A program made the translations under genes and the position numbers. A stretch of DNA of 64,000 bases, from NCBI GenBank assembly GCA_044239895.1, contig JBIIAM010000001.1, positions 478,401 through 542,400 of the forward strand, read 5' to 3'. Origin of the DNA: Acidimicrobiales bacterium (GTDB lineage Bacteria > Actinomycetota > Acidimicrobiia > Acidimicrobiales > Acidimicrobilacustridaceae). Below the pieces are notes generated by a model, which did no database searches, was not told the DNA's origin, and saw only the letters and a list, made by a program, of their open reading frames with translations. This document shows, one piece after another, positions 12,675 to 64,000 of the stretch. Each line of letters starts with the position of its first letter. The stretch's first letter is position 1.

Positions 12675-12678
12675 GCGG

Positions 12679-44364: not shown

Positions 44365-44511
44365 GAAGCGTTCCTCCTAAACGCATCATAGTGCCGGTTA
44401 GCGGCTAACTGAAACTATGGGGCGGTTTTAGTGCCGGTTGCAGTAGAGGCGTGGTGAACGGAGAAAGGGGCTGAACGGGGATTTCCCCAGTCGAGCGACC
44501 GCATTCCGTTG

Positions 44512-44583
44512 TGCCCCCGAGTGGACTCGAACCACCGCACATGGTTTAGGAAACCAATGCTCTATCCCCTGAGCTACGAGGGC
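44512..44583 (-). tRNA. tRNA-Arg (anticodon CCU)
   Basis: Hand-folded on the reverse strand. The acceptor is GCCCTCG/CGGGGGC, the D arm is GCTC-AGGGGATA-GAGC, the anticodon loop is TTCCTAA, and the T arm is GGTGG-TTCGAGT-CCACT. CCA is not encoded. Confidence 0.9.
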
Positions 44584-44679
44584 GGGGATGGACCGGAACG
44601 CGGCACGAAACTGTCGTGTGGCGGCCCGGGGCCATGGGTTGAGGGTAGTTCGGGGCCTATTGGGCGGTCGAAACTTCGG
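44577..44679 (+). repeat. island repeat, copy A (right half only, fused to the genuine tRNA-Arg 5' end)
   Basis: cgagggcggggatggaccggaacgcggcacgaaactgtcgtgtggcggcccggggccatggg...gggtagttcgggg...gggcggtcgaaac. The first ~63 nt are identical to copy E. Confidence 0.85.
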
Positions 44680-44750
44680 TTTAATCAAACCAAAGTTTCG
44701 AGCGCGTTCTTGGCGCGCTGAAGCCACCCGGTCCGAAAGTTCGGGTGGCT
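44669..44750 (-). terminator. three consecutive hairpins between the 531-aa gene stop and the tRNA
   Basis: First, cgaaacttcggttt-aatc-aaaccaaagtttcg (13 of 14 bp) at 44669-44700. Second, agcgcg-ttcttgg-cgcgct at 44701-44719. Third, agccacccg-N11-cgggtggct at 44722-44750. Confidence 0.4.
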
Positions 44751-44756
44751 ACGTAC

Positions 44757-46352
44757 CTATGCGGCGGCGGCGACCGCGTGATTTGGTGGCCTCCATTGAC
44801 CGAACCAGCGTGAAAGGTCCGCACCGGTTCGGTGGTGCCATGCGAGCAGTGTGGTGATCGCGAGGTGGGCTTGGTACCCGTGGAGGTCAAACAGTTGTCG
44901 ATGACGGCCAACGCTGCGGGCGCGTTCGTTTGGCAATGTCATCTTGAGGTGATGGTGCATCGATTCGGAGTCTTCGCGAAGTCCAAACAGCCGACCGAAT
45001 GAGTTATCGGTTTCAGGGATGACTCGCAGGGCGCGGGTGCGCGGTGTCTTGTCGGTGATCTCGTGGTTATAGGAGTTGTGTCGGATTGGTGTGGTGGCGT
45101 TGCGGAGTTTGCGGGGGATGCCGGGTAGGTCGGGGATCTGCCATGTTCCGTAGAAGCGGTAGGTGTCGGTGCGGTCACTCACTCGTTGTGTCCGCACCCG
45201 CACAAGTCCAACTGATTTGCGTTCGTCGCCGATGACCAGTTCGATGCGTGGGGTCCCGTCCACTGCCTGGACGACGAGGAATTTCTTGGTGCCGTCGGTG
45301 AGAGAGAATTCGCGCTCGTTGAGGTTGAAAACCGGAACTTTGCCAGATGAGGTGCGCTGCACTTTCGATACTGGCAAGAGGCCAGCCGAAAGCAGGCGGT
45401 CGTAGTCGGTGGCATGCAGTGCCATGTCGTAGACAAAGCCCTGCAGCCCGGGAAGTTGCGGAAAGATCCGCAGTGCCATGTCGACGGCAAGTGTGGCGTC
45501 ACTCATGTTCGAATGAGGCTTGAAGTCGAGCGCCATGATCAGTCGCTCGTTCGGATACGGATTGCGGGCGATGACGCTGACGAGCATGTTGCCGTTCGCT
45601 TGAGAGTTGTCTCGATAGGCGGTGGCATCGGGATCGAAACGTGTGGTGATGATTTCGCCAGTAGACGGGTCGACATAGGTGGGCGATGAACTGTTGTAGA
45701 GCGATGGAATCCAGGTTCCATCACCGCGCAGCATGTTCTGTGCGGCTGGTTCAGTCCACGAACCATTTTTCGGGTTGCACATGCCAGTGGCAATGGCGAT
45801 ATCGGCACAGAGAGTCTCGAATGCTGTTGCGAGACCTTCGACGGCGTCGTCGAACTCAACATGAGCTTTTCGGTAGCTGGCGTATTGATTTCGGGTGATG
45901 CCCGAAACCGAAAGGCGCCGGGTTGGGTCGTCGGGATAGGCGAGTACCGCTGCTTCGCAGATCAGGTTCCATTGCACCCGGTCACGAAAGAAGCGGTGGG
46001 TGGCGCGTGCTGAGCCGAGGATGGTGTTGGTGATGTTGAACAACAGCACATCGGCTGCAGCGCATTCGCGTGGTCGTCCGCTGCGAGCCTTAGGTGTCTC
46101 CTGTGACTCCATCTTCTCGGCCAGTTCCCAGAGGCCAGACCATGCGGCGATTGCTTGAATCTGTTGGGGGACCGACAGCTCAAGTGAGGCAGGTGTCGGT
46201 GGGCGTTTTCGGCCGGGCCGGATTCCAGCGCTGCCGGTCGGACCATCGAGGCGTTCCTCGACGGTGAAGTCACCCGGTTTGGCATTCAGCGACCGGATCG
46301 GGATCGGTTCGATACCGAAGGCTTTGACGCGGTTGCGGCGTTGCTTGGCCAT
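44757..46352 (-). CDS. 531-aa protein with Tn5/IS4-like DDE transposase signature (tentative)
   Basis: Has a basic N-terminus. Candidate catalytic residues are D211 (LRGDGTW), D309 (FVYDMALH) and E464, which lies within F-x2-R-x3-E-x6-K (FGLREDSESMHHHLK). That matches the IS4 Y-(2)-R-(3)-E-(6)-K spacing with Y replaced by F. D-D and D-E distances (98 and 155 aa) are close to Tn5. I found no flanking inverted repeats. Confidence 0.45.
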   Translation of the reverse strand: MAKQRRNRVKAFGIEPIPIRSLNAKPGDFTVEERLDGPTGSAGIRPGRKRPPTPASLELSVPQQIQAIAAWSGLWELAEKMESQETPKARSGRPRECAAADVLLFNITNTILGSARATHRFFRDRVQWNLICEAAVLAYPDDPTRRLSVSGITRNQYASYRKAHVEFDDAVEGLATAFETLCADIAIATGMCNPKNGSWTEPAAQNMLRGDGTWIPSLYNSSSPTYVDPSTGEIITTRFDPDATAYRDNSQANGNMLVSVIARNPYPNERLIMALDFKPHSNMSDATLAVDMALRIFPQLPGLQGFVYDMALHATDYDRLLSAGLLPVSKVQRTSSGKVPVFNLNEREFSLTDGTKKFLVVQAVDGTPRIELVIGDERKSVGLVRVRTQRVSDRTDTYRFYGTWQIPDLPGIPRKLRNATTPIRHNSYNHEITDKTPRTRALRVIPETDNSFGRLFGLREDSESMHHHLKMTLPNERARSVGRHRQLFDLHGYQAHLAITTLLAWHHRTGADLSRWFGQWRPPNHAVAAAA

Positions 46353-47396
46353 CTACGCCACCCGCCACTCATGAACTAACGCTCTGGCGGTCGCATCAAG
46401 CGAATCCGAACCGAGGAACAGCGCGGCAGCTTCGATTCCGGATTCTTCGAGAACACGGCGGGCAAAGGTGTGACGGATTGAGCGTGCACTTACCTGTCGG
46501 TCGCGTGCGAACCCGGCATCGCGAAGGATCCGGTGCATCCCGGCGGTGACGGTGTGCGCGGCACGTTCATGTCCGAGGTCGTTGCCGCAACAGACACGCT
46601 TGTCATCAACCAAAGACTGTTGAGCAACAACAAGGCGGAGTGTGTCGACACCCCAACCACTGAGCGGTCCGTTCCGTGCGTTGCGACCCGAGAACCGGAC
46701 AACACCTCGATCGAGATCGACATCGTTGCCGCGAACCTCGGCGATCTCGGCGGCAGTTGCACCGGCTTCGCTGAGAGCAACGAACCACGGGGCGAACGTG
46801 AAGAGGAATCCGCCCGTGCATTCGTTACGGATCCGCTGCATCTCACGGTCGGTGAGTAGGCGCGCTGGTTCCGCGTGGCCTCGTTGAATGGACGGGCCAA
46901 GAAGATCGCATGCCGGTGTGATGCCGAGGTGTTCGAGTTCACGCAGCAGTGACTGGATGATCGAGCGTCGATTCGATGCGGTGGTCGCGCTCACATCGCT
47001 CAGCCGTCCGCGGAATGTGGATGCACCCCAGAAGAACGCGTCGGCATGATCGGGTTCGATCTCGTCGAAGAACTCAACGCCCGATGCTTGAAGTTGCTTG
47101 AAGAACCGTGATGCTTCCTTCACGTACTTCGCTTCAGTTCCGGGTGCGCCTGAATACTGCAATTGCAGAGCATTCAGCCCAAGCGTTCGTACTGTTGCCA
47201 GTGGGATCCGGTCGGCATCCATCGCACTCAGCGCAGCTACCAACAACAGCATTCGCTGGTGTTGCAACAACTCTTGATAGTTGAGGGCGCGGTTGGTCGG
47301 GAGGCTGCCAATGGTTCCGAACAATTCGAACTGCGCGAAGTCAAACAACGGCCGTGGAATCGCAAGGTCCGCACGAAGGGGGGTACGTGTACGCAT
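46353..47396 (-). CDS. tyrosine-recombinase-fold protein with degenerate active site
   Basis: Box II is recognisable (SIRHTFARRVLEESG...LFLGSDSLDATARAL). However, there is no Tyr anywhere after RHTFA, the box I Arg position reads AGATAAE, and the beta-hairpin Lys position reads GRNARNGPL. Its stop abuts the start of the 531-aa gene with 0 nt spacing. Confidence 0.6.
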   Translation of the reverse strand: MRTRTPLRADLAIPRPLFDFAQFELFGTIGSLPTNRALNYQELLQHQRMLLLVAALSAMDADRIPLATVRTLGLNALQLQYSGAPGTEAKYVKEASRFFKQLQASGVEFFDEIEPDHADAFFWGASTFRGRLSDVSATTASNRRSIIQSLLRELEHLGITPACDLLGPSIQRGHAEPARLLTDREMQRIRNECTGGFLFTFAPWFVALSEAGATAAEIAEVRGNDVDLDRGVVRFSGRNARNGPLSGWGVDTLRLVVAQQSLVDDKRVCCGNDLGHERAAHTVTAGMHRILRDAGFARDRQVSARSIRHTFARRVLEESGIEAAALFLGSDSLDATARALVHEWRVA

Positions 47397-47491
47397 CTTG
47401 TGTACACAGATTTTCTCACGTGACCTATCGATCTCAGTGCAACTAATGCTGATTCTTTGAAACGAGTATCCGTATTCAGTGTCACCTGTAC

Positions 47492-48403: not shown

Positions 48404-48804
48404 CGGGTCACCCCCTGAGCAAGGATCGTCGAAGGAGCCGGGGTGATGAGACGGAACCACACATAGAAATGTGTCGGATCCGAATCAGTCGGGTCGTTGC
48501 CGTACTCGGCCTCCCACCGCTCACCCACAACAACACCCGACATGCGCAAGGACTCAAGACGTCGGCGATAGGAGTTCCGCAGATCAGAAGCCATCTGCGA
48601 AGCCGAAGCCTTCGTCAACGGCTCAGTCATACGAAACCAAACACCCGGCTTCACCCGAGCCATCGACAACCGCTCAGGCCACGTCCCCCGACGGGAACAA
48701 CCAGAACGGCCAATCTTCGGCGGAATCGACTCCACCGCAGCCGGAACCGTCACTTTTGACGCAGGCGGGTTGGATGGAAAGGAAAGCGTTACTTCGTGAT
48801 GCAT
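48400..48804 (-). CDS. hypothetical protein translationally coupled to the Cas4-like nuclease
   Basis: The ORF is 134 aa; an alternative start at M48 (position 48663) would give 87 aa. I recognised no motif. The ATGA overlap with the downstream gene supports expression. Confidence 0.4.
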   Translation of the reverse strand: MHHEVTLSFPSNPPASKVTVPAAVESIPPKIGRSGCSRRGTWPERLSMARVKPGVWFRMTEPLTKASASQMASDLRNSYRRRLESLRMSGVVVGERWEAEYGNDPTDSDPTHFYVWFRLITPAPSTILAQGVTR

Positions 48805-48900
48805 AGGAATCCCCTTTCAGGGCTTGTGTGTGTATGTACTCAAACGAAGATAGCGTCGAGTATGAACGAACACAACCCCTAGGCCAACTAATCTCTCCCC

Positions 48901-49116: not shown

Positions 49117-49132
49117 CGGGGTAATTCCCGAT

Positions 49133-50725
49133 TTGGCGGAGTTAGGCGCGAGAGGCAGGACAGTTCCAGTGGCATCACCGAAGGTGGACATCCAGGACAT
49201 CGAGAACCGCTTGTGGGATGCGGCCGATGAACTCCGGGCCAATTCAAATCTGAAGGAGTCTGAGTATTCCGTTCCGGTCCTTGGGCTGATCTTCCTCAAG
49301 TACGCCGACAGCCGGTTCTCGGCGCTCGAAGCCGAACTCGAAGGTAAGGGCAGCGGTCGTCGCAAGATCGGTAAGACCGACTATCAGGCTCGCGGCGTCA
49401 TGTACCTCCCGCCCGACGCCCGCTTCTCCACGCTGCTCGAACTGGCTGAAGGCGACGATCTCGGCCAAGCCCTTAACGACGCAATGGCTGCGATCGAACG
49501 CGAGAACGACGACCTTAAGGGTGTGTTGCCGCGTAGTTATAAGGCCCTCACGAACGCCACGCTCACAACGTTGCTGCGTAATGTGAACTCAATCCTCGGT
49601 GACATCGACGGCGACGCGTTCGGCAAGGTCTACGAATATTTCCTCGGCAGGTTCGCTATGGCCGAAGGCCGGAAGGGTGGGCAGTTCTTCACGCCTACCT
49701 CACTCGTACAACTCATTGTCGAGATCATCGAACCGTTTAGCGGAAAGATCTACGACCCGGCCTGTGGCTCGGGTGGCATGTTCGTGCAAAGCGCACGATT
49801 CGTCGACGAACACCGCCAAGGCGCAACCGACAAACTCTCCGTGTACGGACAAGAACGCGTCGGCGAAACCGTCAACCTCTGCCGCATGAACCTCGCAGTT
49901 CACGGCCTGGGTGGACAGGTGCGACAAGGCAACACCTACTACGAAGATCCCTACGACTCAGTCGGCCAGTTCGACTACGTGATGGCGAACCCGCCGTTCA
50001 ACGTCAACAAGATCGACAAGACCAAACTCGTCGATGACCCCCGCTTCCCGCTGGGGCTGCCGAAGGCCGACAACGGCAACTACCTGTGGATCCAGCTGTT
50101 CCACAGTTCGCTCAGCGAGAAGGGCCGGGCCGGGTTCGTTATGGCGAATTCTGCAGCCGATGCTGCAGGGTCTGAACTCGAGATCCGCCGCAAGATCATC
50201 GAAGACAAATCAGTTGATGTCATGGTCTCGATCGGGCCGAACTTCTTCTACACAGTCGCATTGCCGTGCACGCTGTGGTTCTTCGACAAGGGCAAGCGCA
50301 AGACGGACAGGGCTGACTCAGTCCTCTTCATTGACGCTCGCAAGGTCTTCAATCAGATCGATCGAGCACACCGCGACTTCAAGCCGGAGCAGATCGAGTT
50401 CCTTGCCAACATCGTGCGCCTCCATCGCGGGGAGAAGCCTGAACTCGTCGAAGGATCAGACGAACTCATGGCGGAAGCATTCCCCGATGGCAAGTACGAG
50501 GATGTCGCCGGCTTATGCAAGGTTGCAACTCTCGCAGAAATCGAAGCGCAAGGTTGGAGTCTCAACCCAGGCAGGTACGTCGGCATCGAAGCTGAAGCCG
50601 AAGATGACTTTGTTTTCGGGGAGAAACTTCGGAGCTTGGGCGAGGAGTTGGGTCAACTCACTGCTGAATCTGCTTTGCTCTCTAATCGGATATCAGAGTC
50701 CGTCGCTGAGATCTCCAGACCATGA
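49133..50725 (+). CDS. hsdM: type I restriction-modification system, DNA methyltransferase subunit
   Basis: Has an HsdM N-terminal domain ([31 protein letters not shown]), the SAM motif ([10 protein letters not shown]) and the catalytic NPPF (MANPPFN). The start codon (TTG at 49133) is uncertain. Confidence 0.9.
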
Positions 50726-51999
50726 GTGAACGAGAATCGATACCTCTGCGAGATGTTGTGGGGCGCTATATCGGCGGCGGCTGGGGAAAGGACTCCCCAA
50801 CTGAAACGCATCCGTTGCCAGCATTCGTCATTCGTGGCACAGACTTCACAGACGTGTCCTTGGGCGGACTCGGGTCTGCGCCCCTGCGGTTTCATTCGCC
50901 CTCGAACCTCAAGACTCGCCGCCTTCAGGCCGGGGACCTTCTGCTTGAGGTCTCAGGGGGCAGTCGAGATCAACCGGTTGGAAGATCGCTGCTTATTACT
51001 CCTGAAATCAGGGCGAGGTTCGATGGCGATGTCATATGCGCGAGCTTCTGCAAGCTGGTTCGACCGAATACGGACCGCATTGATCCGACTTTTTTCTTTT
51101 ACTTCCTCCAGGCAATTTACGCGGACAGAACGATTACCCAGTTCCAAGTCCAATCCACGGGAATCAGTAACTTTCAGTTCGAGGCGTTTCTTGATGAGCA
51201 GAGAATTCATCTTCCATCTTTGGAAGTTCAGCGAAGATCCGTGCGAGTGCTTCGCAATTGCGATGCGTTGATTGAGAACAATTCGCGGCGGATTGAGATT
51301 TTGGAGGAGATGGCGCAGGCGATCTATCGGGAGTGGTTCGTGGAGTTCCGGTACCCCGGCCACGAGGATGTCCCTCTCGTCGACACTGACCTTGGCCCTA
51401 TCCCCGAAGACTGGGAATGGCTACAAATTCGAGAGATCTCTTCGGAGTGCAGAACAAGTGTTGATCCAACTGGGTTGAACGCGGACGTTCCCTACTTCGG
51501 CCTTGAACATCTTCCTCAGCGATCTGTTGCACTTAGTGATTGGGGGCGTGCGTCCGAGGCGGGTAGTCGTAAGTACCAGTTTGAAGTCGGCGATATCCTC
51601 TTCGGAAAAATTCGACCTTATTTCCATAAGGTGGGGGTACCTCCGGTTGCGGGAATTTGCTCGACCGATGCGATCGTTGTGAGACCAAACGAAGGGTTCT
51701 CTGGAATCTGCCTAGCCACAGTTTCGAGTGATGCATTTGTTGCCCAGGCCGTCCAAACTTCGCAGGGCACGAAGATGCCTCGGGCAAATTGGGCAGTCCT
51801 TGAGACATACCCGGTTGCCGTTCCATCGTGTGGTCTGCTCGGAACGTTTGAGTCCTATATGGCAGACACCGTTCAGATGATTCAGACGCTGGTGATGACT
51901 AATCGGGTTCTCCGCGAAACTAGAGATCTGCTGCTTCCTCGTTTGATCTCTGGGGAGATTGATCCGTCGGGGTTGGATATCGAATTGGCGGATTCATAG
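50722..51999 (+). CDS. hsdS: type I restriction-modification system, specificity subunit
   Basis: 425 aa with two target-recognition halves separated by a conserved helical spacer ([25 protein letters not shown]). The C-terminal helix is [12 protein letters not shown]. It overlaps hsdM by 4 nt. Confidence 0.85.
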
Positions 52000-52001
52000 G
52001 C

Positions 52002-55000
52002 ATGAGTGCGTTCCGTAAGACCGAGGATGTTCTGGTCGAGAAGCCGGCAATTGAGCTGATGGCTCAGTTGGGTTGGACGACGGTCGATGCGATGACCGAG
52101 GTCCATGGTCCGGACGGAACTTTGGGTCGAGACAACCAGGGTGAGGTTGTGCTTACTCGTCACCTTCGTGATGCGTTAAGGCGGTTGAATCCGAAACTTC
52201 CAGACGAAGCAATTTCTCTCGCTGTCGCTGAACTTTCTCGTGATCGATCGGTGATGAACGAGGTCGTTGCCAACCGCGAGCTGTACCAGTTGATGAAAGA
52301 TGGCGTCACTGTCGAGGTTCGCAACGACAAAGGCGCCACCGTGACCGAACGGGTCCGAGTTATCGATTGGGCCGATCCGTCAGCGAATGAGTTCTTGCTT
52401 GTGTCGCAGTTGTGGGTGACAGGACCGTTCCATACGCGTCGTGCTGATCTGATCGGGTTCGTGAACGGTCTGCCGTTGGTGTTCATTGAGTTGAAGGCCT
52501 CGCAGAAGAAGATTGAGGACGCCTACAACAACAACCTCACTGATTACCGGGACACGATCCCGGCACTGTTCATTCCGAACGCTTTCATCATCTTGTCCAA
52601 CGGCATCGAATCGAAAGTTGGTTCGATTACTGCTGGGTGGGAGCACTTCACGGAGTGGAAGAAAATCGATGAGGAATCTGAACCGGGTGTGATTTCGCTT
52701 GAGACGATGCTTCGTGGCACTTGTGACCCGGCCCGGCTGTTGGATCTGGTCGAGAACTTCATCGCCTATCAGGACAAAGCCGGTGGTGTCGTCAAGTTGA
52801 TGGCGAGAAACCATCAGTACCTGGGCGTGAACAATGCGATTGAACGGCTCCGCGAAACCCGCACCGCCCCTGAGGCTGAGCGAGGTCGCTTGGGTGTGTT
52901 CTGGCACACCCAGGGTTCGGGCAAGACCCTGTCGATGCTGTTTTTCTCGCAGAAGATCCTTCGCAAGATTGCCGGGAACTGGACGTTCGTAGTTGTCACC
53001 GACCGAACCCAACTTGATGATCAGGCCTACCGGGAGTTCACCGAAGCCGGTGTGCTGACCGAAGGCCATGTTCAGGCCACAAGCAGTGAGAACTTGCGTC
53101 AGTTGTTGGGTGAGGATCACCGCTATGTGTTCACGTTGATCCAGAAGTTTCAGACCGGCCGGTTCGATGAGTTCCCGATGCTGTCGGATCGCTCAGACAT
53201 CATCGTGATCAATGACGAAGCCCATCGTTCGCAGTATGACACGCTGGCGTTGAACATGCGCAACGCGTTGCCGAACGCTTCGTTTCTCGGCTTCACCGGT
53301 ACACCGCTGATCGCCGGGGAGGAACGCACACGCGAAGTCTTCGGTGATTACGTCTCGATCTACGACTTTGGCGATTCGATCCGTGATGGTTCAACGGTTC
53401 CGCTCTTCTACGAAAACCGCATTCCCGAACTGCAGTTATCGAATGAGAACTTCGACGTCGAACTCGAACGAATCCTCGAAGAGGCTGAACTCGACGAAGA
53501 GCAAGAAGAAAAACTGGCCCGCTTGTTTGCCAAGCAATATCAGCTCGTCACGCGTGAGGAACGGCTCGAACGGGTCGCCGCTGATCTTGTCGAGCACTTC
53601 TTGGGCCGCGGATTCCAGGGCAAAGCCATAGTCATCTCGATCGACAAGGCCACCACCGTGCGCATGTTCGACAAGGTGACCGCCAAGTGGCAGGAACGTC
53701 TTGCTACGAACCGGACTCGACTTCTCGATGCAAATTTGGGTGGTGACGAGCGCGCGCTGCTGGAAGCCGAAGTCGCCTACATGGCTGAGACTGACATGGC
53801 TGTGGTCGTGTCACAGTCACAGAACGAAATCCTTGAGATGCGGCGCAAAGGCCTCGACATCATTCCGCATCGCAAACGGATGGTTGAAGAGAACCTCGAA
53901 AAGAAGTTCAAAGACTCCAAGGACCCGTTCCGCCTCGCATTCGTCTGTGCCATGTGGACCACCGGTTTCGATGTGCCGTCCTGTTCGACGATCTATCTCG
54001 ACAAGCCGATGAAGAACCACACCCTCATGCAGACGATCACCCGGGCGAACCGGGTGTTCCCCGAGAAGAACAACGGTCTGATCGTCGACTACATCGGGGT
54101 GTTCCGCAGTCTCGAAGCAGCCCTTGCCATTTACGCAGCCCCGCGTGGCGGGGGAGAGACACCGGTCGGGCCGAAGACCGAACTGGTCGCAGCGCTGCGG
54201 GCAACGATCGACAACGCCGTTGCGTTCTGCACATCACATGGGATCGATGTCGACTCGTTCAAGAAACTCGAAGGCTTCGCAGTTATCGCCGCTGGCGAGA
54301 ATGCAGTCGAAGTCCTGATCAGCGATGAGGACACGAAGAACACGTTCCTTGCCCACGCCCGACTCGTGAACCGTCTATTCAAAGCGATCCTCCCCGATCA
54401 GGCAGCCAACGAGTTCGGTCCCACCCGGGCCGTTCTCAACTACATCGCCGAACTGATCCTGAACCTGAAACCCAACGTCGACGTCTCACACGTCCTCGGT
54501 CAGATCGAGAAACTCCTTGACGAGTCAGTCGCTGCAAACGCATACGTAATCCGTGCACCGACCCAAGGTGCCAATACTTCACTCATCGACCTGAACCAGG
54601 TTGACTGGGAACTGCTGGCGAAGAAGTTCGCAGCCGGCAGGAAGCGAACCGAGGCGGCGAAGCTTCAGGCGAACATCGAGTTGAAGGTCAATGCTCTCGC
54701 CCGGGTAAACCCCACGCGTGCTGACTGGGTCGAGAAATTTCAGCAACTCATCAGCGAGTACAACAACGGATCTGTCAACGTTGAAGAGTTCTTCAAGCGA
54801 CTCGTGGAGTTCACTCAGCAACTCAACGAAGAGGAACGCCGGGGGCTCGCCGAGAACCTCAGCGAGGAACAACTCGCCGTCTACGACCTGCTCATGCGAC
54901 CGGCCCCCGAACTCACTGAGGCTGAGAAGAAGCAGGTCAAGCAGGTCGCCGAATCGTTGCTTGAACTACTCAAGCGAGAGAAACTCGTTTTGGACTGGCG

Positions 55001-55169
55001 CAAGGAACAACAAGCGCGCGCTGCTGTACGTCTCGCAGTTGAAGAGACCCTCGACCAGTTGCCTGAGAAGTTCGGCACTGGTCTTTACGCAGAGAAGTGT
55101 GATCTCGTCTACCAGCATGTGTTCGACAGCTACTGGGACGACGGCAAGAACGTCTATTCAGTTGCGTGA
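52002..55169 (+). CDS. hsdR: type I restriction endonuclease, R subunit
   Basis: 1055 aa with an N-terminal nuclease region, an SF2 helicase Walker A (HTQGSGKTLSM) and a DEAH box (VINDEAHRSQ). Later helicase motifs are also present (TGTPL, QTITRANR). Confidence 0.9.
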   Translation: MSAFRKTEDVLVEKPAIELMAQLGWTTVDAMTEVHGPDGTLGRDNQGEVVLTRHLRDALRRLNPKLPDEAISLAVAELSRDRSVMNEVVANRELYQLMKDGVTVEVRNDKGATVTERVRVIDWADPSANEFLLVSQLWVTGPFHTRRADLIGFVNGLPLVFIELKASQKKIEDAYNNNLTDYRDTIPALFIPNAFIILSNGIESKVGSITAGWEHFTEWKKIDEESEPGVISLETMLRGTCDPARLLDLVENFIAYQDKAGGVVKLMARNHQYLGVNNAIERLRETRTAPEAERGRLGVFWHTQGSGKTLSMLFFSQKILRKIAGNWTFVVVTDRTQLDDQAYREFTEAGVLTEGHVQATSSENLRQLLGEDHRYVFTLIQKFQTGRFDEFPMLSDRSDIIVINDEAHRSQYDTLALNMRNALPNASFLGFTGTPLIAGEERTREVFGDYVSIYDFGDSIRDGSTVPLFYENRIPELQLSNENFDVELERILEEAELDEEQEEKLARLFAKQYQLVTREERLERVAADLVEHFLGRGFQGKAIVISIDKATTVRMFDKVTAKWQERLATNRTRLLDANLGGDERALLEAEVAYMAETDMAVVVSQSQNEILEMRRKGLDIIPHRKRMVEENLEKKFKDSKDPFRLAFVCAMWTTGFDVPSCSTIYLDKPMKNHTLMQTITRANRVFPEKNNGLIVDYIGVFRSLEAALAIYAAPRGGGETPVGPKTELVAALRATIDNAVAFCTSHGIDVDSFKKLEGFAVIAAGENAVEVLISDEDTKNTFLAHARLVNRLFKAILPDQAANEFGPTRAVLNYIAELILNLKPNVDVSHVLGQIEKLLDESVAANAYVIRAPTQGANTSLIDLNQVDWELLAKKFAAGRKRTEAAKLQANIELKVNALARVNPTRADWVEKFQQLISEYNNGSVNVEEFFKRLVEFTQQLNEEERRGLAENLSEEQLAVYDLLMRPAPELTEAEKKQVKQVAESLLELLKREKLVLDWRKEQQARAAVRLAVEETLDQLPEKFGTGLYAEKCDLVYQHVFDSYWDDGKNVYSVA

Positions 55170-55221
55170 ATCCATCAAACTATAAATTACGGGTACCGTC
55201 GAACGGCTGTGAGGTGAAGAT

Positions 55222-55944
55222 ATGTGGAATAGATACAAAGGTAAGGATCTTTCCGGCAAAGATTTCAGTCGTGCTCACCTTCAGGAGAAAGACTTTTCAG
55301 GGTCAGACCTGTCGGGCGCGGACTTCACTGAAGCAGATCTTGCGCGGGCCGACCTGCGAGGCGCCAACCTGCGAGGCGCCAATCTTTCAGGCGCTCAACT
55401 GTCATTGACGTTGATGTGGGGGGCAAACCTTTCAGGGGCGAACCTGGAGAATTGTTATCTATACAGAGTGAGTTGGCATGATCTGAACCTGTCGGGAGCA
55501 AACCTCACGGGGGCGAACTTAGAAAGAGCGAATTTGGGGAGTTCCGACTTAACGAACGCGGTCTTTAAAAATGTCAATCTGACTTTTGCTGATTTATCGG
55601 GTGCAACTGTTAGAGGCGCCGACTTCACCGGCGCAAATTTGCATTGGGTCAATCTTGACCGAGTAGTCGCAAGTCCCCAGGAACTAGCGAAACTTTCGGA
55701 GTTAAAGGAATTAGGTGAACCACCTAAAGTTGCGAAGCCAAAACCGCTTTCCGGTTCGAGTTCACCGAAAACGGGATTCACTAGCCATGAGCATCAAAAT
55801 CCGAATCGTTCGCCTTATGCCGACGATCCGATTTATGACCGGTACTACACACATTGGGGTCAGGAAGGCCGGGAATTCGATTGGTGGATTGATCGTGAGT
55901 GCCCCCATCGCATCCGGATCCAGGATTGTGGAAACTGCTATTAA
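55222..55944 (+). CDS. pentapeptide-repeat protein with Cys-containing C-terminal tail
   Basis: About 170 aa of A(D/N)LxX repeats (ADLRGANLRGANLSGAQLS...), then a Pro/Lys/Ser linker. The tail ends DRECPHRIRIQDCGNCY. A GAGG sits 7 nt upstream of the ATG. Confidence 0.85.
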   Translation: MWNRYKGKDLSGKDFSRAHLQEKDFSGSDLSGADFTEADLARADLRGANLRGANLSGAQLSLTLMWGANLSGANLENCYLYRVSWHDLNLSGANLTGANLERANLGSSDLTNAVFKNVNLTFADLSGATVRGADFTGANLHWVNLDRVVASPQELAKLSELKELGEPPKVAKPKPLSGSSSPKTGFTSHEHQNPNRSPYADDPIYDRYYTHWGQEGREFDWWIDRECPHRIRIQDCGNCY

Positions 55945-55948
55945 AACG

Positions 55949-55975: not shown

Positions 55976-56033
55976 CAGCGAATCCCCTGGGTTTGGGAGA
56001 CATGAGGGTCCCTCTCAGTGTGATGCCGGCTGC

Positions 56034-56223
56034 CGCGTTTCACTTTTGGCCGAAACGCGTTTCACCATCTATTTCTGTAAACGCTTTGACCTGCGGGTTT
56101 TGGATTACGCGCCATCCCCACGAGGGCGGGGATGGCGCGGAACGTGGCGCGAAACTCGGCGCAACGGCCCGGAAGCCATTGGAGAAGGGTAGTTCGGGGG
56201 TTCTGGGCCGGTCGAAAGTTCAG
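56034..56223 (+). repeat. island repeat, copy B (full length)
   Basis: Starts cgcgtttcacttttggccgaaacgcgtttcacc and ends ggtcgaaagttcag. It is closely similar to copy D, with scattered substitutions. Confidence 0.9.
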
Positions 56224-56252
56224 TTTGATCAGCCGGAAACTCGGGGCCGGGC

Positions 56253-56813
56253 TTATTTGCTCTCTGTGGAGCGGCGCTGTCGGTAGGAGTGGGTATTCAC
56301 CCTGTTTCCGCATCGTGATGTGTCGCACCACCGTCGAGTTCCCGGGCGTGACTCGTCATAGAAGATCAACGCGCACCCTGGTCCTTCGCACCGGCGCAGT
56401 CGACCATCGCGAAGTGCGAGCAATTCGATCGCATCGCGCGCGACTGTGCTCAACGCTGCATCGACTCCGCTTCCGTCGTACTTGAGAGCGATTGACCCGT
56501 TCGACGCAAGCTCTGGGATGTACGCAGAGCGTGCTGCGTTCCCGTTGATCACTTTTCGTTGTGACGTAGAAGGCGGCTGATCATCAACAGCCCTAGAGAG
56601 CGCTCCGAAGATTGCTTCCCGAAGTTCTTTGAACCGATCGAGATCTTGGCTATCTAATTGGCCAGAGGTCTGTAGGTCGTGGGAGGACGTCCAACTGCGC
56701 AGATCACGAGGCGTTAGCAAGAGTTCAGTCGGACTCACATTGCGATAGCGCAGTGTCCAGGTCAGGTCGATCGAGAGGCGGCTGGAGCGAAGCGAGTCGT
56801 TGGGAATGCGCAT
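56253..56813 (-). CDS. CGNR zinc-finger (ABATE-domain) protein
   Basis: The C-terminus LRRCEGPGCALIFYDESRPGTRRWCDTSRCGNRVNTHSYRQRR is the CGNR zinc-finger signature. Confidence 0.8.
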   Translation of the reverse strand: MRIPNDSLRSSRLSIDLTWTLRYRNVSPTELLLTPRDLRSWTSSHDLQTSGQLDSQDLDRFKELREAIFGALSRAVDDQPPSTSQRKVINGNAARSAYIPELASNGSIALKYDGSGVDAALSTVARDAIELLALRDGRLRRCEGPGCALIFYDESRPGTRRWCDTSRCGNRVNTHSYRQRRSTESK

Positions 56814-56816
56814 TGA

Positions 56817-57293
56817 TCAACTTCCCTTCACAAGAATCTGCGCTTCGATCTCGAGGGTGAGATTCGCAGGAAGCGAGGAGACGCCGACAGCAAGACGGCT
56901 ATGGCGGCCGGCTTCGCCAAAGACTTCGACAAGAACGTCTGACGCTGCGTCAATCACCGAAGTGTGTTCGACGAACTGCGGCATTGCATTCACTACGCCG
57001 TAGACCCGCACTACTTGTTCGACGCGGTCGAGCGATCCGAGCGCATCGCGAATGGTCGCCAACATGTTGATCGCAGCTGAACGCGCCGCTTCCCGAGCTT
57101 CGTCGGCGGTGGTGTCCTCGCCGCATCGCCCTGCGTGAAGTGTTCCGTCTGGTCGGGTACCGAAGTGTCCACCGACCCAAAGGACATCTCGTGCCAAAAC
57201 CGTAGGTACGTATTGGCCGAATGCGGGCAGGGGAGCAGGTAGCTCGATTCCTGTTGCTTTGAGTCGCTCCTCATGGGAATCAATCGATGTCAT
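56817..57293 (-). CDS. RidA/YjgF-family (reactive intermediate deaminase-like) protein
   Basis: The N-terminus ERLKATGIELPAPLPAFGQYVPTVLARDVLWVGGH and the C-terminal LPANLTLEIEAQILV are typical of the YjgF/RutC class. Confidence 0.8.
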   Translation of the reverse strand: MTSIDSHEERLKATGIELPAPLPAFGQYVPTVLARDVLWVGGHFGTRPDGTLHAGRCGEDTTADEAREAARSAAINMLATIRDALGSLDRVEQVVRVYGVVNAMPQFVEHTSVIDAASDVLVEVFGEAGRHSRLAVGVSSLPANLTLEIEAQILVKGS

Positions 57294-57300
57294 GAGATGG

Positions 57301-57333
57301 ACACTAGACAGAGGTTTAACCTCTGTCTAGTGT
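57301..57333. promoter_or_regulatory. 33-bp near-perfect palindrome in the ridA / DUF1272 divergent region
   Basis: acactagacagaggtt-t-aacctctgtctagtgt has 16-bp perfect arms and begins 8 nt from the ridA start codon. Two smaller hairpins follow: cccatc/gatggg at 57337-57353 and gtgat/atcac at 57353-57367. Confidence 0.6.
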
Positions 57334-57388
57334 GGACCCATCTGATTGATGGGTGATCGAGAATCACTGAATACGGAAGAGAAGATTG

Positions 57389-57562
57389 ATGCTTGAAATG
57401 CGTAAGTCCTGCGAACGGTGTGAAGCGCCGCTAGCGGCCGATGGTGTTGCCGTGATTTGCAGCTTTGAATGCACGTTCTGCACGAACTGTGGTGGTGAAC
57501 TCGAAAATCGCTGTCCCAACTGCGGCGGCGAACTCGTTAGTCGTCCCCGACGGGCGGCGTAA
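57389..57562 (+). CDS. DUF1272-like small zinc-ribbon protein
   Basis: 57 aa, below the ORF-track cutoff: MLEMRKSCERCEAPLAADGVAVICSFECTFCTNCGGELENRCPNCGGELVSRPRRAA. The Cys pattern and ICSFECTFC core match my recollection of DUF1272. Confidence 0.65.
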   Translation: MLEMRKSCERCEAPLAADGVAVICSFECTFCTNCGGELENRCPNCGGELVSRPRRAA

Positions 57563-57586
57563 CCCTGGATTGAAGAAGTAGTCCAG

Positions 57587-57773
57587 CGCGTTTCACTTTT
57601 GGCCGAAACGCGTTTCACTACCTATTTGTGGAAACCCACTGACCTGCGGGTTTTGAATTACGCGCACGTCCCGCGAGCGGGGTGTGAGTGGAACCTGGCG
57701 CGAAACTCGGCGCAACGGCCCGGAAGCCATGTGGGAAGGGTAGTTCGGGGTGTATCAGGCGGTCGAAAGTTGC
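57587..57773 (+). repeat. island repeat, copy C (full length, most divergent)
   Basis: It has the same ends and order of blocks as B, D and E. The central hairpin is remodelled to cacgtcccg-cgag-cggggtgtg. Confidence 0.85.
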
Positions 57774-57838
57774 TTTGTGGTTAGGCTTTGTTTGTCGACC
57801 GGCAAAGGGTCTCTCGACTTTTAGTCGGGAGTTCTCAT

Positions 57839-58450
57839 ATGGTCCGCAGATCAGTTCTCGCAATGTTCGCTGTTATGGCGATTGTGTTGGGTTGTGTTGT
57901 TGTTTCGACACCGGCCGGTGCCGTTGTCGATAGCGCGACAATCGTGGCAAGCCCGAACGCCGGCACTAACTACGATGAACTGCGTTCGGTGTCGTGTGTG
58001 AGTGTGTCCGAGTGCGTCGCGGTTGGTTACACGTACACCGACTCGGCCTATGAGACGTTGGCGATGGTGTGGAATGGCAGTGTCTGGTCGATTGTGTCGA
58101 GCCCCAACGCCGGCACCAGCGTCGATGCGCTGATGTCGGTGTCGTGTGTGAGTGTGTCGTCATGTGTTGCGGTTGGTTACACAGACACTGGTTCGGCTAT
58201 TGAGACGTTGGTGATGGTGTGGGATGGCAGCGTGTGGTCGGTTGTGTCAAGCCCCAGTCCCGGCACTATCGACGATGAGATGTTTTCGGTTTCGTGTGTG
58301 AGTGCGTCGGAGTGTGTTGCGGTTGGTTACACGGACATCGGGAACAACATCTATGAGACGTTGGTGCTTTCGTTGACCGGGCCAGTGCCTCCGTCAACAA
58401 CTACAACGACAGTCGCGTCAGACCCGGTTGTCCCTGCGTTCACCGGCTGA
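57839..58450 (+). CDS. secreted protein with three tandem ~48-aa Cys-containing repeats
   Basis: A signal peptide (MVRRSVLAMFAVMAIVLGCVVVSTPAGA) is followed by three copies of SPNAGT..D.L.SVSCVSVS.CVAVGYT.T.S..ETL.MVW.GSVWS.VS. The C-terminus is Thr/Pro-rich. I chose the ATG at 57839 after GGGAG. Confidence 0.7.
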   Translation: MVRRSVLAMFAVMAIVLGCVVVSTPAGAVVDSATIVASPNAGTNYDELRSVSCVSVSECVAVGYTYTDSAYETLAMVWNGSVWSIVSSPNAGTSVDALMSVSCVSVSSCVAVGYTDTGSAIETLVMVWDGSVWSVVSSPSPGTIDDEMFSVSCVSASECVAVGYTDIGNNIYETLVLSLTGPVPPSTTTTTVASDPVVPAFTG

Positions 58451-58491
58451 ACCTGCGGCACTACCGCCACGCCTAATCGGCTCGATTGGAC

Positions 58492-58681
58492 CGCGTTTCA
58501 CTTTTGGCCGAAACGCGTTTCACCATCAGTTTCTGTAAACCCGTTGACCTGCGGGTTTTGAATTACGCGCCATCCCCACGAGGGCGGGGATGGCGCGGAA
58601 CGAGGCGCGAAACTCGGCGCAACGGCCCGGAAGCCATGGGAGAAGGGTAGTTCGGGGTCTATCGGGCGGTCGAAAGTTCAG
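58492..58681 (+). repeat. island repeat, copy D (full length)
   Basis: Three clean hairpins: 58493-58516 (gcgtttc/gaaacgc), 58537-58558 (aaacccg/cgggttt) and 58567-58596 (gcgccatcccc/ggggatggcgc). Confidence 0.9.
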
Positions 58682-58767
58682 TTAGATCAAGGCGAATTCT
58701 CTAACAACCGAAACGGTGGCGTCTCAAGGTCTGGAATTGGGACGGGGTCCTTTTCAGCTTCAACTCT

Positions 58768-58785
58768 GATACCCTTAGGGGTATC
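58768..58785. promoter_or_regulatory. CsoR/CstR-type operator-like palindrome upstream of the SQR-like gene
   Basis: GATACCC-TTAG-GGGTATC has 7-bp perfect arms, lies 29 nt upstream of the ATG, and is followed by AAAGGAGG. The TACCC-N4-GGGTA core resembles operators I recall for CsoR-family repressors. Confidence 0.5.
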
Positions 58786-58813
58786 TAAGAATTGAAAAAA
58801 AGGAGGCCACAGA

Positions 58814-60271
58814 ATGGCCGAGGTTGTGGTTTTGGGAGCGGGGGTTGCGGGCCACACTGCTGCGCTCCATCTCAAGCGGATGTTGCCGAAGGGCGACACT
58901 GTCACGGTCGTGTCGCCGAAGTCCGATTGGAATTGGATCCCATCAAATATTTGGGTTGGGGTAGGAAAGATGGCTCCGGAAAAGGTTGTTTTTCCTCTCG
59001 CACCGATCTATCGGCGTAAGGGAATCAACTTTGTGCAAGGCAAAGCAGTAAGCGTCTACGTCGAGGGGAGGGCTGAGGATCAGCGTCCATTCGTTGAGGT
59101 TGAACTCACCCAGGGAGCAGTTGGCTCCAAGGTGAACGTGCATTATGACTTTCTCGTCAATGCCACTGGCCCGCAGTTGCGATTCGATGCAACGGAAGGA
59201 TTGGGCCCAGAAGCAAATTCGCAATCGGTATGCACCGCTTCACATGCGACTCAAGCATCTGCCGCCCTTGACTCCGCAATTGCTTTGATGGAATCCGGGA
59301 AAAAGCAAACGTTTGTAATTGGAATGGGGCATGGGACATGTACCTGTGAAGGTGCAGCATTTGAATACGTCTTTAATGTTGAACATGTGCTGCGAGAACG
59401 CGGTGTGCGTGAGATGGCTCGTGTCGTCTACCTCACCAATGAACACGAAGTCGGCGATTTTGGGGTCGGTGGAATGTCATTTGAAAAAGATGGCCTGACC
59501 ATCACGAGCGAGCAATGGATGACGCGACTCTTTGCAGAACGAGGCATCGAAGTTATTGCCCAAGCTCATGTGACATCAGTTGAGCCAACTGCGGTCAACT
59601 ACGACCTTATTGACGGAACTTCGAGCTCGCTTGATTTCGATTTCGCAATGCTTCTGCCTCCATTCAAGGGCGTCGGGCTAACGGCAATTGACCGGGAGGG
59701 AAACGATGTCTCGGAGACAGTGTTCGCACCGAGCGGTTTCATGAAGGTTGATGCCAACTACGAGTCGAAACCATTTGAGGATTGGTTGGCTGACGATTGG
59801 CCCAGCACTTACGAGAGCCCGAGCTACCCCAATGTGTTCGCCGCAGGAATTGCTTTTGCGCCTCCACATGCCATCTCTCGTCCATACAAGACGCCGAAGG
59901 GTGACCTTGTCGCTCCAAGTCCTCCTCGAACGGGCATGCCATCGGGAGTCCAGGGAAAGACGGTGGCAGAAACAATTAATGACCGAATCCGACATGGCGA
60001 TCTAGGTCGTGCCGCAAAGCGTGCATCGATGGCTGAAATGGGTGCAGCGTGCATTGCGTCGGTGGGTGCGGGTATTCGAAATGGTGCTGCCGCAACAATC
60101 ACAATGTCGCCGATTGTTCCTGACACGAAACGGTACGGATCAAGTGGCCGTATCGCTAGTCAGACCTTTGGTGAGATTGGGTTAGCGGGGCACTGGATGA
60201 AGCGACTTTTGCACACATTGTTTATCTACAAGGCCAAAGCCCGTCCGGGCTGGTGGCTGATCCCGGAGTGA
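58814..60271 (+). CDS. sulfide:quinone oxidoreductase-like FAD-dependent oxidoreductase
   Basis: Has an N-terminal FAD site (VVVLGAGVAGHTAALHL) and WNWIPSNIWVGVG typical of the SQR/FCSD family. Conserved Cys contexts are GTCTCEGAA and GAACIASVG. A C-terminal amphipathic tail is also present. Confidence 0.7.
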   Translation: MAEVVVLGAGVAGHTAALHLKRMLPKGDTVTVVSPKSDWNWIPSNIWVGVGKMAPEKVVFPLAPIYRRKGINFVQGKAVSVYVEGRAEDQRPFVEVELTQGAVGSKVNVHYDFLVNATGPQLRFDATEGLGPEANSQSVCTASHATQASAALDSAIALMESGKKQTFVIGMGHGTCTCEGAAFEYVFNVEHVLRERGVREMARVVYLTNEHEVGDFGVGGMSFEKDGLTITSEQWMTRLFAERGIEVIAQAHVTSVEPTAVNYDLIDGTSSSLDFDFAMLLPPFKGVGLTAIDREGNDVSETVFAPSGFMKVDANYESKPFEDWLADDWPSTYESPSYPNVFAAGIAFAPPHAISRPYKTPKGDLVAPSPPRTGMPSGVQGKTVAETINDRIRHGDLGRAAKRASMAEMGAACIASVGAGIRNGAAATITMSPIVPDTKRYGSSGRIASQTFGEIGLAGHWMKRLLHTLFIYKAKARPGWWLIPE

Positions 60272-60273
60272 AA

Positions 60274-60411
60274 ATGAATGATCAACGACCACCCACAAAT
60301 ATCGGAACCGGCGTCAATCGCAAAGAACAACGAAAGCGAATGGGATTACTCAGACAAGGCTTTCGATTTTTGGTTCTCAACTTCAAGATCTTTCGTCTGA
60401 CTCGACACTGA
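60274..60411 (+). CDS. candidate 45-aa basic small ORF immediately after the SQR-like gene
   Basis: The ATG lies 2 nt after the sqr stop and encodes MNDQRPPTNIGTGVNRKEQRKRMGLLRQGFRFLVLNFKIFRLTRH. I have no homology evidence, and it may be non-coding. Confidence 0.2.
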   Translation: MNDQRPPTNIGTGVNRKEQRKRMGLLRQGFRFLVLNFKIFRLTRH

Positions 60412-60473
60412 ACCAGACATGAACGAGTGGCACCGCAGATTCTCGGTTCTCGTCGGTTCAAGTTTGAGGTTGA

Positions 60474-61400
60474 TTAGGGAGTGAGCGGTCGAGAGCGAAT
60501 TCTCGCCGCAAGTGCATCAGCGACGAGCGATGTGGCTTGTCTGAAAAGGGGGGCCCTTGGATCCGTGGTCCGCCATACCAATGAAAGTGTTCGACCCCAA
60601 GTCGGATCCGCGAGTTCACGGATTGCCAGCCCACTACCGGCGCGTGCTTCAACCTCAACTGCGCACGCAGGTAGCAATGTTGCGGCGCTACTAGATGCAA
60701 TCATCTGGCTAAGAACAGCGAGGCTCGTTTGGTGCACGCCACGACTATTCGTTGCATCGGCAATGCGGCAAACGTCGAGGATGTGATCGCGGAGACAATG
60801 GCCGTCTTCCAGCAAGAGAAGCTCGAGTCCACTTAGGTCCGTCTCGGTGACAAGCTTGGTTGTGTTGAGAGGGTTTGACTCAGCGAGTGCGAGAACGAAT
60901 GGCTCGAAAAGCAGTTCGCTGACCTCAAGTGATCTGGTCTGGGCGGGAGTGGCTAAGAGGCCAAAGTCAATCCGACCTTGAGCAATTTCGCCTATGAGGT
61001 CGGCTGTTCGTAGCTCATGCAGTTCGAGATGCGCTTCGGGCCAGGATGTTCGCAACGTTCGAGCCAATGTCGAGAAGAGATAAGGGGCAATGGTTGGAAT
61101 TGCGCCGATACGAATTGCGCCTACAACGGCGCCTCGATGAGCCGCTGAGGCGTGGGTCAGTTCGTCGGCCTGAAGTAGCAACATTCGAGCGCGGGTGATG
61201 ACCTCTTCACCAGCGGACGTGGTGATGCAAGACGATCGGTTTCGCTCGAAAAGAACGAACTCAAGGCGTCGTTCAAGCTCGGCGATCTGAGCTGAGAGCC
61301 CCGGTTGAGAAACAAAGAGTGCCTCGGCAGCCCTGCTGAACGAGCCGTGGTCGGCAACGGCGACGGCGTATTCAAGTTGCCGAAAGGTTGGCCGCTCCAC
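60474..61400 (-). CDS. oxyR: LysR-family peroxide sensor OxyR
   Basis: Has a LysR HTH (FRQLEYAVAVADHGSFSRAAEALFVSQPGLSAQI). The OxyR redox pair sits in its canonical context, LLLLEDGHCLRDHILDVC (equivalent to E. coli C199 and C208). Confidence 0.85.
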   Translation of the reverse strand: MERPTFRQLEYAVAVADHGSFSRAAEALFVSQPGLSAQIAELERRLEFVLFERNRSSCITTSAGEEVITRARMLLLQADELTHASAAHRGAVVGAIRIGAIPTIAPYLFSTLARTLRTSWPEAHLELHELRTADLIGEIAQGRIDFGLLATPAQTRSLEVSELLFEPFVLALAESNPLNTTKLVTETDLSGLELLLLEDGHCLRDHILDVCRIADATNSRGVHQTSLAVLSQMIASSSAATLLPACAVEVEARAGSGLAIRELADPTWGRTLSLVWRTTDPRAPLFRQATSLVADALAARIRSRPLTP

Positions 61401-61409
61401 TTCCCTAGT

Positions 61410-63692
<2,283 letters not shown>

Positions 63693-63749
63693 GGAACTTC
63701 GGTCGGGAGTGATGTGTGCGAAATTGATTCCGAACACCTCACTCCCGAT

Positions 63750-63939
63750 CGCGTTTCACTTTTGGCCGAAACGCGTTTCACCACCTATTTCTGTAAACCC
63801 GTTGACCTGCGGGTTTTGAATTACGCGCCATCCCCACGAGGGCGGGGATGGACCGGAACGCGGCACGAAACTGTCGTGTGGCGGCCCGGGGCCATGGGCT
63901 GAGGGTAGTTCGGGGCATGTTGGGCGGTCGAACGTTCAG
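63750..63939 (+). repeat. island repeat, copy E (full length; right half nearly identical to copy A)
   Basis: The left half resembles B, C and D. The right half is of the A subtype (ggaccggaacgcggcacgaaactgtcgtgtggcggcccggggccatggg). The motif gtcgaccggcaaagggtctctcgact follows it, and the same motif follows copy C. Confidence 0.9.
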
Positions 63940-64000
63940 TGGCGACTACGTTTTCCGAGTCGACCGGCAAAGGGTCTCTCGACTATCTGGTCAAAGGGTG

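Follow-up and report, generated by a model that had tools for sequence, protein, structure and literature searches.

The DNA analyzed here (the window) is a 64,000-nt stretch of contig JBIIAM010000001.1 from an Acidimicrobiales bacterium (assembly GCA_044239895.1, G000 below); coordinates are positions in this window, and the contig numbering G000:C1 is used beyond its end. On the minus strand it carries a gene pair, P0001 (46353..47396) and P0002 (44757..46352), encoding a 347-aa tyrosine-recombinase-fold protein and a 531-aa Tn5/IS4-like DDE transposase, respectively. Both open reading frames (ORFs) and their 0-nt spacing had been located correctly in the original prediction, which was made from the letters of the DNA: the TAG stop codon of P0001 directly abuts the ATG of P0002. 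Downstream of P0002 lie a 173-nt segment (44584..44756, minus strand) and a tRNA-Arg(CCT) gene (44511..44583, minus strand; ARAGORN, Rfam tRNA 60 bits), and upstream of P0001 lies P0003 (47492..48460, minus strand), a gene for a PD-(D/E)XK/Cas4-like protein. P0003, P0001, and P0002 are co-oriented and all point toward tRNA-Arg(CCT). The genes beyond P0003 are on the plus strand (49133..55944) and were identified with Pfam as hsdM (49133-50725), hsdS (50722-51999), and hsdR (52002-55169) of a type I restriction-modification system, followed by a pentapeptide-repeat protein gene (55222-55944). Together with its two ends, this set of genes forms unit 1 (44584-56119, 11,536 bp), which is quite probably an autonomous, cargo-carrying, site-specific DDE transposon at the 5' end of tRNA-Arg(CCT), its insertion target. 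The P0001/P0002 pair would be the core of an apparently undescribed family of actinobacterial elements that insert exactly at the starts of tRNA genes.

The limits of unit 1 are given by its junction sequences. The first 8 nt of tRNA-Arg(CCT), GCCCTCGT (44576-44583, minus strand), recur at 56120..56127 (minus strand), and between these direct copies unit 1 has 12-nt inverted termini. The right-end terminal inverted repeat, ...GGTCCATCCCC (44584-44595, minus strand), abuts position +1 of the tRNA, where the junction reads ...GGTCCATCCCC, then GCCCTCGT, then AGCTCAG..., and the left-end repeat, GGGGATGGCGCG..., occupies 56108-56119 (minus strand). The original prediction had found no terminal inverted repeats around the gene pair; they were overlooked because the element is 11.5 kb long and its ends do not lie around the pair. 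The right end (44584..44756), delimited by repeat family D2, alignment A1, and the junction table, contains two tandem ~11-nt sites of the TTTCGTGCC/TTCCGGTCCA type and a ~100-nt segment, B, common to all array junctions, and its design is conserved in 30+ loci. The left end (56033..56119, minus strand; repeat families D1 and D3, junctions) is a conserved ~87-nt subterminal segment, A, with two GTGAAACGCG repeats. The right end probably also supplies the promoter of the tRNA; scanning its 173 nt with the sigma-70 consensus, a weak guide for an actinobacterium, gave no promoter.

Unit 1 is the youngest member of a series. A ~190-nt repeat occurs in ten copies, all in one orientation, within G000:C1:522976-552502 (window 44576 to ~74100). 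Because GCCCTCGT is identical to nt 1-8 of the tRNA, each repeat can be read as the right end of one unit, the 8-bp duplication, and the left end of the next. Nine further end-to-end junctions like that of unit 1, with the same inverted termini and direct flanks, make up a ~30-kb same-orientation array that runs past the end of the window to approximately window-equivalent 74010 (G000:C1:552410). In the direction of the tRNA, nearly all of these junctions read ...CGCGCCATCCCC, then GCCCTCGT, then GGGGATGGCGCGTAATTC..., with the oldest decayed, and the left end after the 8-mer begins GGGGATGGCGCG.... The right end of the older unit 2 was found just beyond the 8-mer at 56120..56127, and the rest of the window (56128..64000, minus strand) consists of older non-autonomous units with the same right-end, 8-mer, and left-end bounds, namely unit 2 (56128-57670), unit 3 with a repeat protein (57677-58577), unit 4 with a flavin adenine dinucleotide (FAD) oxidoreductase, LysR, and KatG (58586-63835), and unit 5, which starts at 63844. 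Units 2 to ~10 are 0.9-5.3 kb long and all lack the transposition module; besides KatG, LysR, and the oxidoreductase, their cargo includes an extracytoplasmic function (ECF) sigma/anti-sigma pair, a peptidase, and four paralogous repeat-protein genes. Rfam gave no match within the array repeats. Since every repeat is composed of a right end, the 8-bp segment, and a left end, and since a decayed C-terminal fragment of a second transposase (66% identity) sits at an older array junction, the pair is very probably the machinery behind this repeat-partitioned array, as originally proposed.

The four units with paralogous repeat-protein genes (57677-58577 in the window and window-equivalent 63844-65341, 68534-70031, and 74011-77609) share 66-78% DNA identity. 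Their genes contain 150-nt (50-aa) tandem repeats in varying copy number and encode proteins of 220, 402, 402, and 803 aa, which indicates that a repeat-protein cassette entered the site repeatedly. G + C content falls from ~0.60 to ~0.545 from the restriction-modification genes onward (50000-64000). This drop fits foreign cargo, while the transposition module (0.59-0.60) matches the host.

The predicted structure and motifs of P0002 identify it as a Tn5/IS4-type DDE transposase. Its AlphaFold (AF2) model (predicted local distance difference test score, pLDDT, 84; predicted template modeling score, pTM, 0.85) has the RNase H-like order of strands and helices, with an all-beta insertion at residues 341-424 between D309 and E463, ahead of the helix that carries the Glu. 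The top five Foldseek matches of this model were all Tn5 transposase (best E 8e-8), and VIA-align aligned residues 59-523 with Tn5 at Z 14.3 (279 residues, root-mean-square deviation 3.8), the runners-up being piggyBac (Z 9.1), ISCth4 (8.8), and TnsB (5.6). As for the catalytic triad, the originally proposed D211 and D309 and their 98-aa spacing stand, but the Glu is E463 rather than E464, which is a Ser, and the second spacing is 154 instead of 155 aa. The IS4-type YREK spacing with Phe in place of Tyr had been read correctly (F456-x2-R459-x3-E463-x6-K470). An alignment of 20 family members shows conserved GDGTW (D211), YDMA (D309), and (Y/F)GxREDxES...K (R459, E463, K470) motifs, in which the first signature position is Tyr or Phe, R459 is invariant, and K470 is nearly so. 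Across 35 distant relatives of 24-31% identity, the sole invariant columns are D211, D309, R459, and E463. An exhaustive profile search with the P0002 family retrieved 1,535 clusters at 50% identity, and PF01609 (DDE_Tnp_1) was matched by two of the 35 remote relatives (best E 2e-5). Source annotations call transposases of this type "hypothetical protein".

The partner, P0001, has a tyrosine-recombinase fold without the Tyr nucleophile. Pfam and NCBIfam gave only weak integrase/Xer matches in the correct domain order, and a profile of 20 family members matched XerA (2.3e-6). Its AF2 model (pLDDT 82) matched XerA, Tn1549 Int, IntI4, lambda Int, XerH, and Cre with a Foldseek probability of 1.0 (template modeling score up to 0.59). 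We assign the fold because of these profile and Foldseek matches; both a core-binding (CB) domain and a catalytic-like domain are present. Tyr occurs only at residues 40, 81, and 91, with none in the catalytic domain. When P0001 is aligned with XerA, Arg-II is kept (R308), whereas the box I Arg is replaced by T214, the hairpin Lys by N239, His-II by R305, His-III by S330, and the Tyr by A339. The degenerate active site noted in the original prediction is therefore confirmed, and 35 partner proteins from other loci agree with it, as their C-terminal tails have no conserved Tyr column and the position reads H, Y, W, F, or L. Different residues of the pentad have been lost in different subfamilies, and many distant members keep Arg-I and lose Arg-II; as judged from the sequences, this pattern fits a long release from catalytic constraint with retention of the fold. 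A 3' frameshift that hides a Tyr is not credible because the tails are of conserved length and the following gene begins immediately. Source annotations name such partners "integrase" or "site-specific integrase". In the pairs compared, P0001 evolves faster than P0002, and a predicted complex of the two proteins scored 0.00 in a run without controls. On the strength of its modeled DNA-clamping fold and its constant place immediately ahead of the transposase gene, P0001 is most likely a sequence-specific DNA-binding subunit for target recognition or for binding or pairing the ends. Both the fold of P0001 and the DDE residues of P0002 exceed chance, given the invariant columns and the recovery of the folds from independent models.

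The same arrangement, a dead-recombinase gene, the DDE gene, ~170-250 bp, and a tRNA gene, recurs in Acidimicrobiia and other Actinomycetota. Among 13 loci from public metagenome-assembled genomes of Acidimicrobiia, tRNA-Arg(CCT) lies ~170-220 bp downstream on the same strand in nine, and a P0001-like gene lies immediately upstream in all five with full flanks. A sample of the class gave matches in 59 of 401 genomes (a tally that includes the unpublished genome G254, on which no individual conclusion here depends), with a patchy distribution within genera. A P0001-like gene is directly upstream of the transposase in 24 of the 29 loci from this sample, and a same-strand tRNA gene is 170-250 bp downstream in ~22 of them. 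The phylum sample gave matches in 25 of 401 genomes (including the unpublished G483 and G512, on which likewise no individual conclusion depends), and five of six loci from other classes have the same P0001-like gene and tRNA. Wherever a full-length copy has sufficient flanking sequence, both genes are present, and they abut or overlap. The association of the pair with each other and with a tRNA gene, which the original prediction had raised, thus holds as a strict coupling that is tRNA-linked in many genomes. The position relative to the tRNA is conserved even though the proteins are only ~33% identical at the lowest. The targets seen are Arg-CCT (the commonest), Arg-CCG, Arg-TCT, Lys-TTT, Thr-TGT, and Ala-TGC, and, in other classes of the phylum, Phe-GAA; second copies in the same genome sit at other tRNAs. 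The window itself contains a gene for tRNA-Lys(TTT), a target of other family members in other genomes, at 12677-12750, and no element was noted beside this copy.

The ends found at these loci follow one design. Right ends always finish ...CCC(C/G) immediately before tRNA +1 and carry two tandem 11-12-nt sites, which co-vary in sequence by subfamily and are absent from unrelated tRNA upstream regions. The inverted repeats likewise co-vary among subfamilies (GGGGATGG, GGGGTTGG, GGGGCCGGTAG, and GGGGGCGG), and the 8-bp duplication is the start of the tRNA in every case. Within the genus of G000, array size ranges from 0 to at least nine junctions. The complete same-genus genome G014 retains at the tRNA just a right end, with a small transposase remnant and no intact copy; its island is 9 kb compared with 33 kb in G000, and both flanks are conserved. 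We regard the patchy distribution, the decayed transposase copy, and the variation of array size within a genus as signs of mobility. For an element at tRNA-Lys in G235, a pattern search for the left junction gave two-mismatch matches at chance level only.

Some loci depart from this layout. In L035, L037, and L049, from three other genomes, only the 5' half of the tRNA, up to and including the anticodon loop, lies next to the right end; unrelated DNA comes after it and contains CGTGACCTG in L035 and L049. A second, different integrative element seems to have entered the anticodon-loop region and displaced that half. In L027 (G374:C173), the junction 8-mer ~190 nt past the transposase stop codon is ACGAGGGC, the reverse complement of GCCCTCGT. 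The element could have inserted the other way round with respect to the tRNA, or the spacer between the inverted repeats could have been flipped; the contig is too short to distinguish the two.

The end structure allowed a prediction in the complete genome G147. For its copy at tRNA-Thr, the left junction was predicted to consist of the first 8 nt of the tRNA and the inverted right terminus, and this 16-mer had one exact match, on the correct strand, 41 kb upstream. The outer flank of this junction is a native-looking upstream region and not another right end, and the element has a near copy of it within its right end, 51 nt inward. This one case and the B segment shared within the window suggest that the element may carry the tRNA promoter region along. 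For the Arg copy of G147, a left junction bearing the corresponding inverted repeat lies at a distance of 72 kb. Where one genome has related left ends, the 8-mers beside them differ, and each is that of the tRNA concerned. Among relatives of G147, the exact flank pattern of an empty tRNA-Thr site found nothing, and a flank search gave distant matches only.

On the basis of the fold, the invariant DDE residues, and the end structure, we propose that P0002 would cleave and perform strand transfer at the 12-nt terminal inverted repeats. Insertion would proceed by staggered cuts 8 bp apart across tRNA +1 to +8, a mechanism deduced from the observed junctions. Such cuts would regenerate the tRNA gene beside the right end and leave the spare 8-mer at the left end; the regenerated target could then be hit again, and elements would stack in one orientation with the older ones pushed outward. 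In this way, repeated insertion would produce the ~30-kb array, whose cargo units are mostly non-autonomous. Upstream of the tRNA, the original sequence is replaced by the right end, which appears to carry a promoter-like copy of it.

Compared with known systems, unit 1 resembles Tn5 (IS50) and the IS4 family in its best structural match, its DDE triad, the beta-rich insertion that separates the second Asp from the Glu, its Y/F-x2-R-x3-E-x6-K signature, its terminal inverted repeats, and a short fixed target duplication, which is 8 bp here and 9 bp in Tn5. It differs from them in that P0002 has no Pfam DDE_Tnp_1 match, a dead-recombinase gene is an obligate neighbor, insertion occurs strictly at +1 to +8 of specific tRNA genes instead of at near-random targets, and the elements, from 1.5 to ~40 kb or more, carry cargo and stack in tandem at one site. 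The architecture had been described as neither a standard island nor a standard insertion sequence (IS); what we found has the architecture of a large, cargo-carrying, site-specific transposon, which stays within the IS and transposon world. The tRNA-associated integrase islands are similar in their same-orientation stacking of unrelated cargo at one tRNA, in the att-like repeats between units, and in restoring the displaced part of the gene. In contrast to them, insertion here is at the 5' end of the tRNA, away from the anticodon loop, the T loop, and the 3' end, what the element brings is upstream sequence and not a 3' tRNA copy, and the sole recombinase-fold protein has no active site. Integrons also have a cassette array that is separated by structured repeats and lies next to a recombinase-fold gene. 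However, the recombinase-fold protein here is dead, the module lies inside the newest unit instead of on a fixed platform, and the units have inverted-repeat ends and a target duplication, in addition to a DDE enzyme. By analogy, the closest precedent for P0001 would be TnsF of Tn6022-like Tn7 transposons, an inactivated tyrosine-recombinase derivative that is essential and selects comM as the target (Faure et al. 2023, PMC10293859). According to that paper, zinc fingers at the N terminus of TnsF are accompanied by two CB-like domains and only part of a catalytic domain, and the protein acts via TniQ, TnsC, TnsB, and TnsA (PMC10293859). As described, TnsF is like P0001 an inactivated tyrosine-recombinase-derived accessory protein encoded beside DDE transposition genes; unlike TnsF, P0001 keeps the complete CB and catalytic-like fold and partners a Tn5-like enzyme. 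P0002 also matches Tn5 (Z 14.3) far better than TnsB (Z 5.6), and there are no TnsA/B/C/TniQ-like genes or AAA+ domains among the Pfam-scanned ORFs of unit 1.

Several observations weigh against a site-specific DDE transposon. An 8-bp constant flank between 12-nt inverted repeats also looks exactly like a loxP-like core site of a tyrosine recombinase, so that the ends by themselves do not discriminate between transposition and site-specific recombination. The tRNA gene would be broken by cut-and-paste excision. We observed no transposition event, excised form, or empty site; in lake-water metagenome contigs (four runs, fragmented at repeats), no excision product or circle junction and no empty site could be called cleanly. 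P0002 itself has no Pfam match at E<=1 and none in NCBIfam, its family profile had no match among PDB sequences, and its link to Tn5 rests on predicted structure and motifs. Moreover, in the small number of pairs that were compared, P0001 did not diverge in step with the tRNA target. The joints in the metagenome contigs (e.g., 44672 to 57794) are explained by cross-mapping between near-identical copies of the ends.

The loxP-like look leads to one rival explanation, conservative site-specific recombination at a site with 12-nt arms and an 8-bp overlap, carried out by an active integrase in trans or by P0001 with an unconventional nucleophile, with P0002 being accessory or unrelated. The 12/8/12-nt junction design does match canonical tyrosine-recombinase core sites, P0001 has the complete two-domain fold, and same-orientation stacked islands at tRNA genes are typical of integrase-driven accretion. 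Nevertheless, we consider this improbable, and transposition is favored, because the one protein with a recombinase fold is inactive throughout the family (35 partners lack a conserved Tyr, and Arg-I, Lys, His-II, Arg-II, and His-III are variously lost) and its partner is most conserved in the DDE triad. Transposition is also favored because in G147 ~51 nt of terminal sequence lies between the promoter-like copy and the 8-mer, which a seamless att exchange would not leave, and because the 8-mers of related left ends in one genome differ, each agreeing with its own tRNA. No other recombinase was present among the main unit 1 ORFs tested with Pfam. Still less probable, in our judgment, is an immobile host module, domesticated and vertically inherited upstream of tRNA genes for example as a regulator of tRNA expression or a locus-specific factor for a recombination hotspot, with the array built by other elements. 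The strict conservation of position down to ~33% identity, the intactness and conservation of both genes, and the lack of an observed mobility event would suit such a module; it is difficult to reconcile with the patchy presence in the class, with the multiple copies and numerous decayed remnants that a locus or genome has at different tRNAs, with a complete same-genus genome devoid of an intact copy, and with co-varying inverted repeats that delimit units containing the pair. A further explanation keeps transposition and removes P0001 from the transposition complex: P0002 would be an ordinary IS4-type enzyme with an intrinsic preference for tRNA ends, and P0001 only a regulator such as a repressor of transposition or of the operon. 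Tn5 and Tn10 transposases indeed work without a partner protein, and the divergence of P0001 does not follow the target. We regard this as rather unlikely, since genes that abut or overlap and co-occur in every full-length copy argue for a stoichiometric partner, although they do not prove one, and since a dead recombinase can be indispensable to targeting, as in the case of TnsF (PMC10293859).

Returning to the site-specific transposon, we tentatively put forward a broader view, to which we give slightly less than an even chance. In this proposal, a Tn5-like transposase and a DNA-reading dead recombinase would be enough to place elements of 1.5 kb to several tens of kb, precisely and in a set orientation, at the first base pairs of a selected tRNA gene, with the dead recombinase setting the target or pairing the ends. 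A recombinase fold would then have been co-opted by a DDE transposon for a second time, independently and in a transposase superfamily other than that of Tn7, and the system would be an unrecognized builder of hypervariable islands across Actinomycetota.

The third gene of the module, P0003, encodes a PD-(D/E)XK protein of the Cas4/RecB-like type; the class assignment is based on paralogues that match PF12705 and on ESM Atlas clusters of PDDEXK_1. Its true start is probably M20 (48403). The four conserved iron-sulfur Cys residues and the first Asp are kept (alignment A6), and the D-x-K motif of the housekeeping paralogues (IDLKTG) reads VSFTMT in P0003. From this alignment, P0003 is probably an inactive PD-(D/E)XK protein and would be a second pseudo-enzyme in the module. 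Its orthologues adjoin the pair in the closest subfamily only (G301, G103, and G002), and we consider it an accessory of that subfamily alone. On the opposite, 3' side of tRNA-Arg, a Fic/DOC-family gene (43084-44364) lies directly next to the tRNA and is absent from the syntenic site of the same-genus genome G014, indicating that this side is also variable.

In full-text literature searches, neither the pairing of a Tn5/IS4-type transposase with a dead tyrosine recombinase nor bacterial transposons aimed at tRNA 5' ends turned up, TnsF being the only precedent. We know of no bacterial mobile element that uses the 5' end of a tRNA gene as its target. If our interpretation is true, unit 1 would represent a new class of site-specific transposon that combines an IS4/Tn5-type enzyme with a pseudo-recombinase partner and targets tRNA 5' ends, and its transposase family is large (1,535 clusters) yet without annotation. 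It would also be the second case, after TnsF, in which recombinase folds have been recycled as DNA-reading subunits, and, with only two genes, a far simpler setting in which to test how target selectors evolve. There would be practical interest, too, in compact machinery that delivers large cargo to a defined site and leaves the target gene intact. For the organisms themselves, such elements would account for the assembly of a hypervariable island with defense and stress genes in freshwater Acidimicrobiia and other Actinomycetota.

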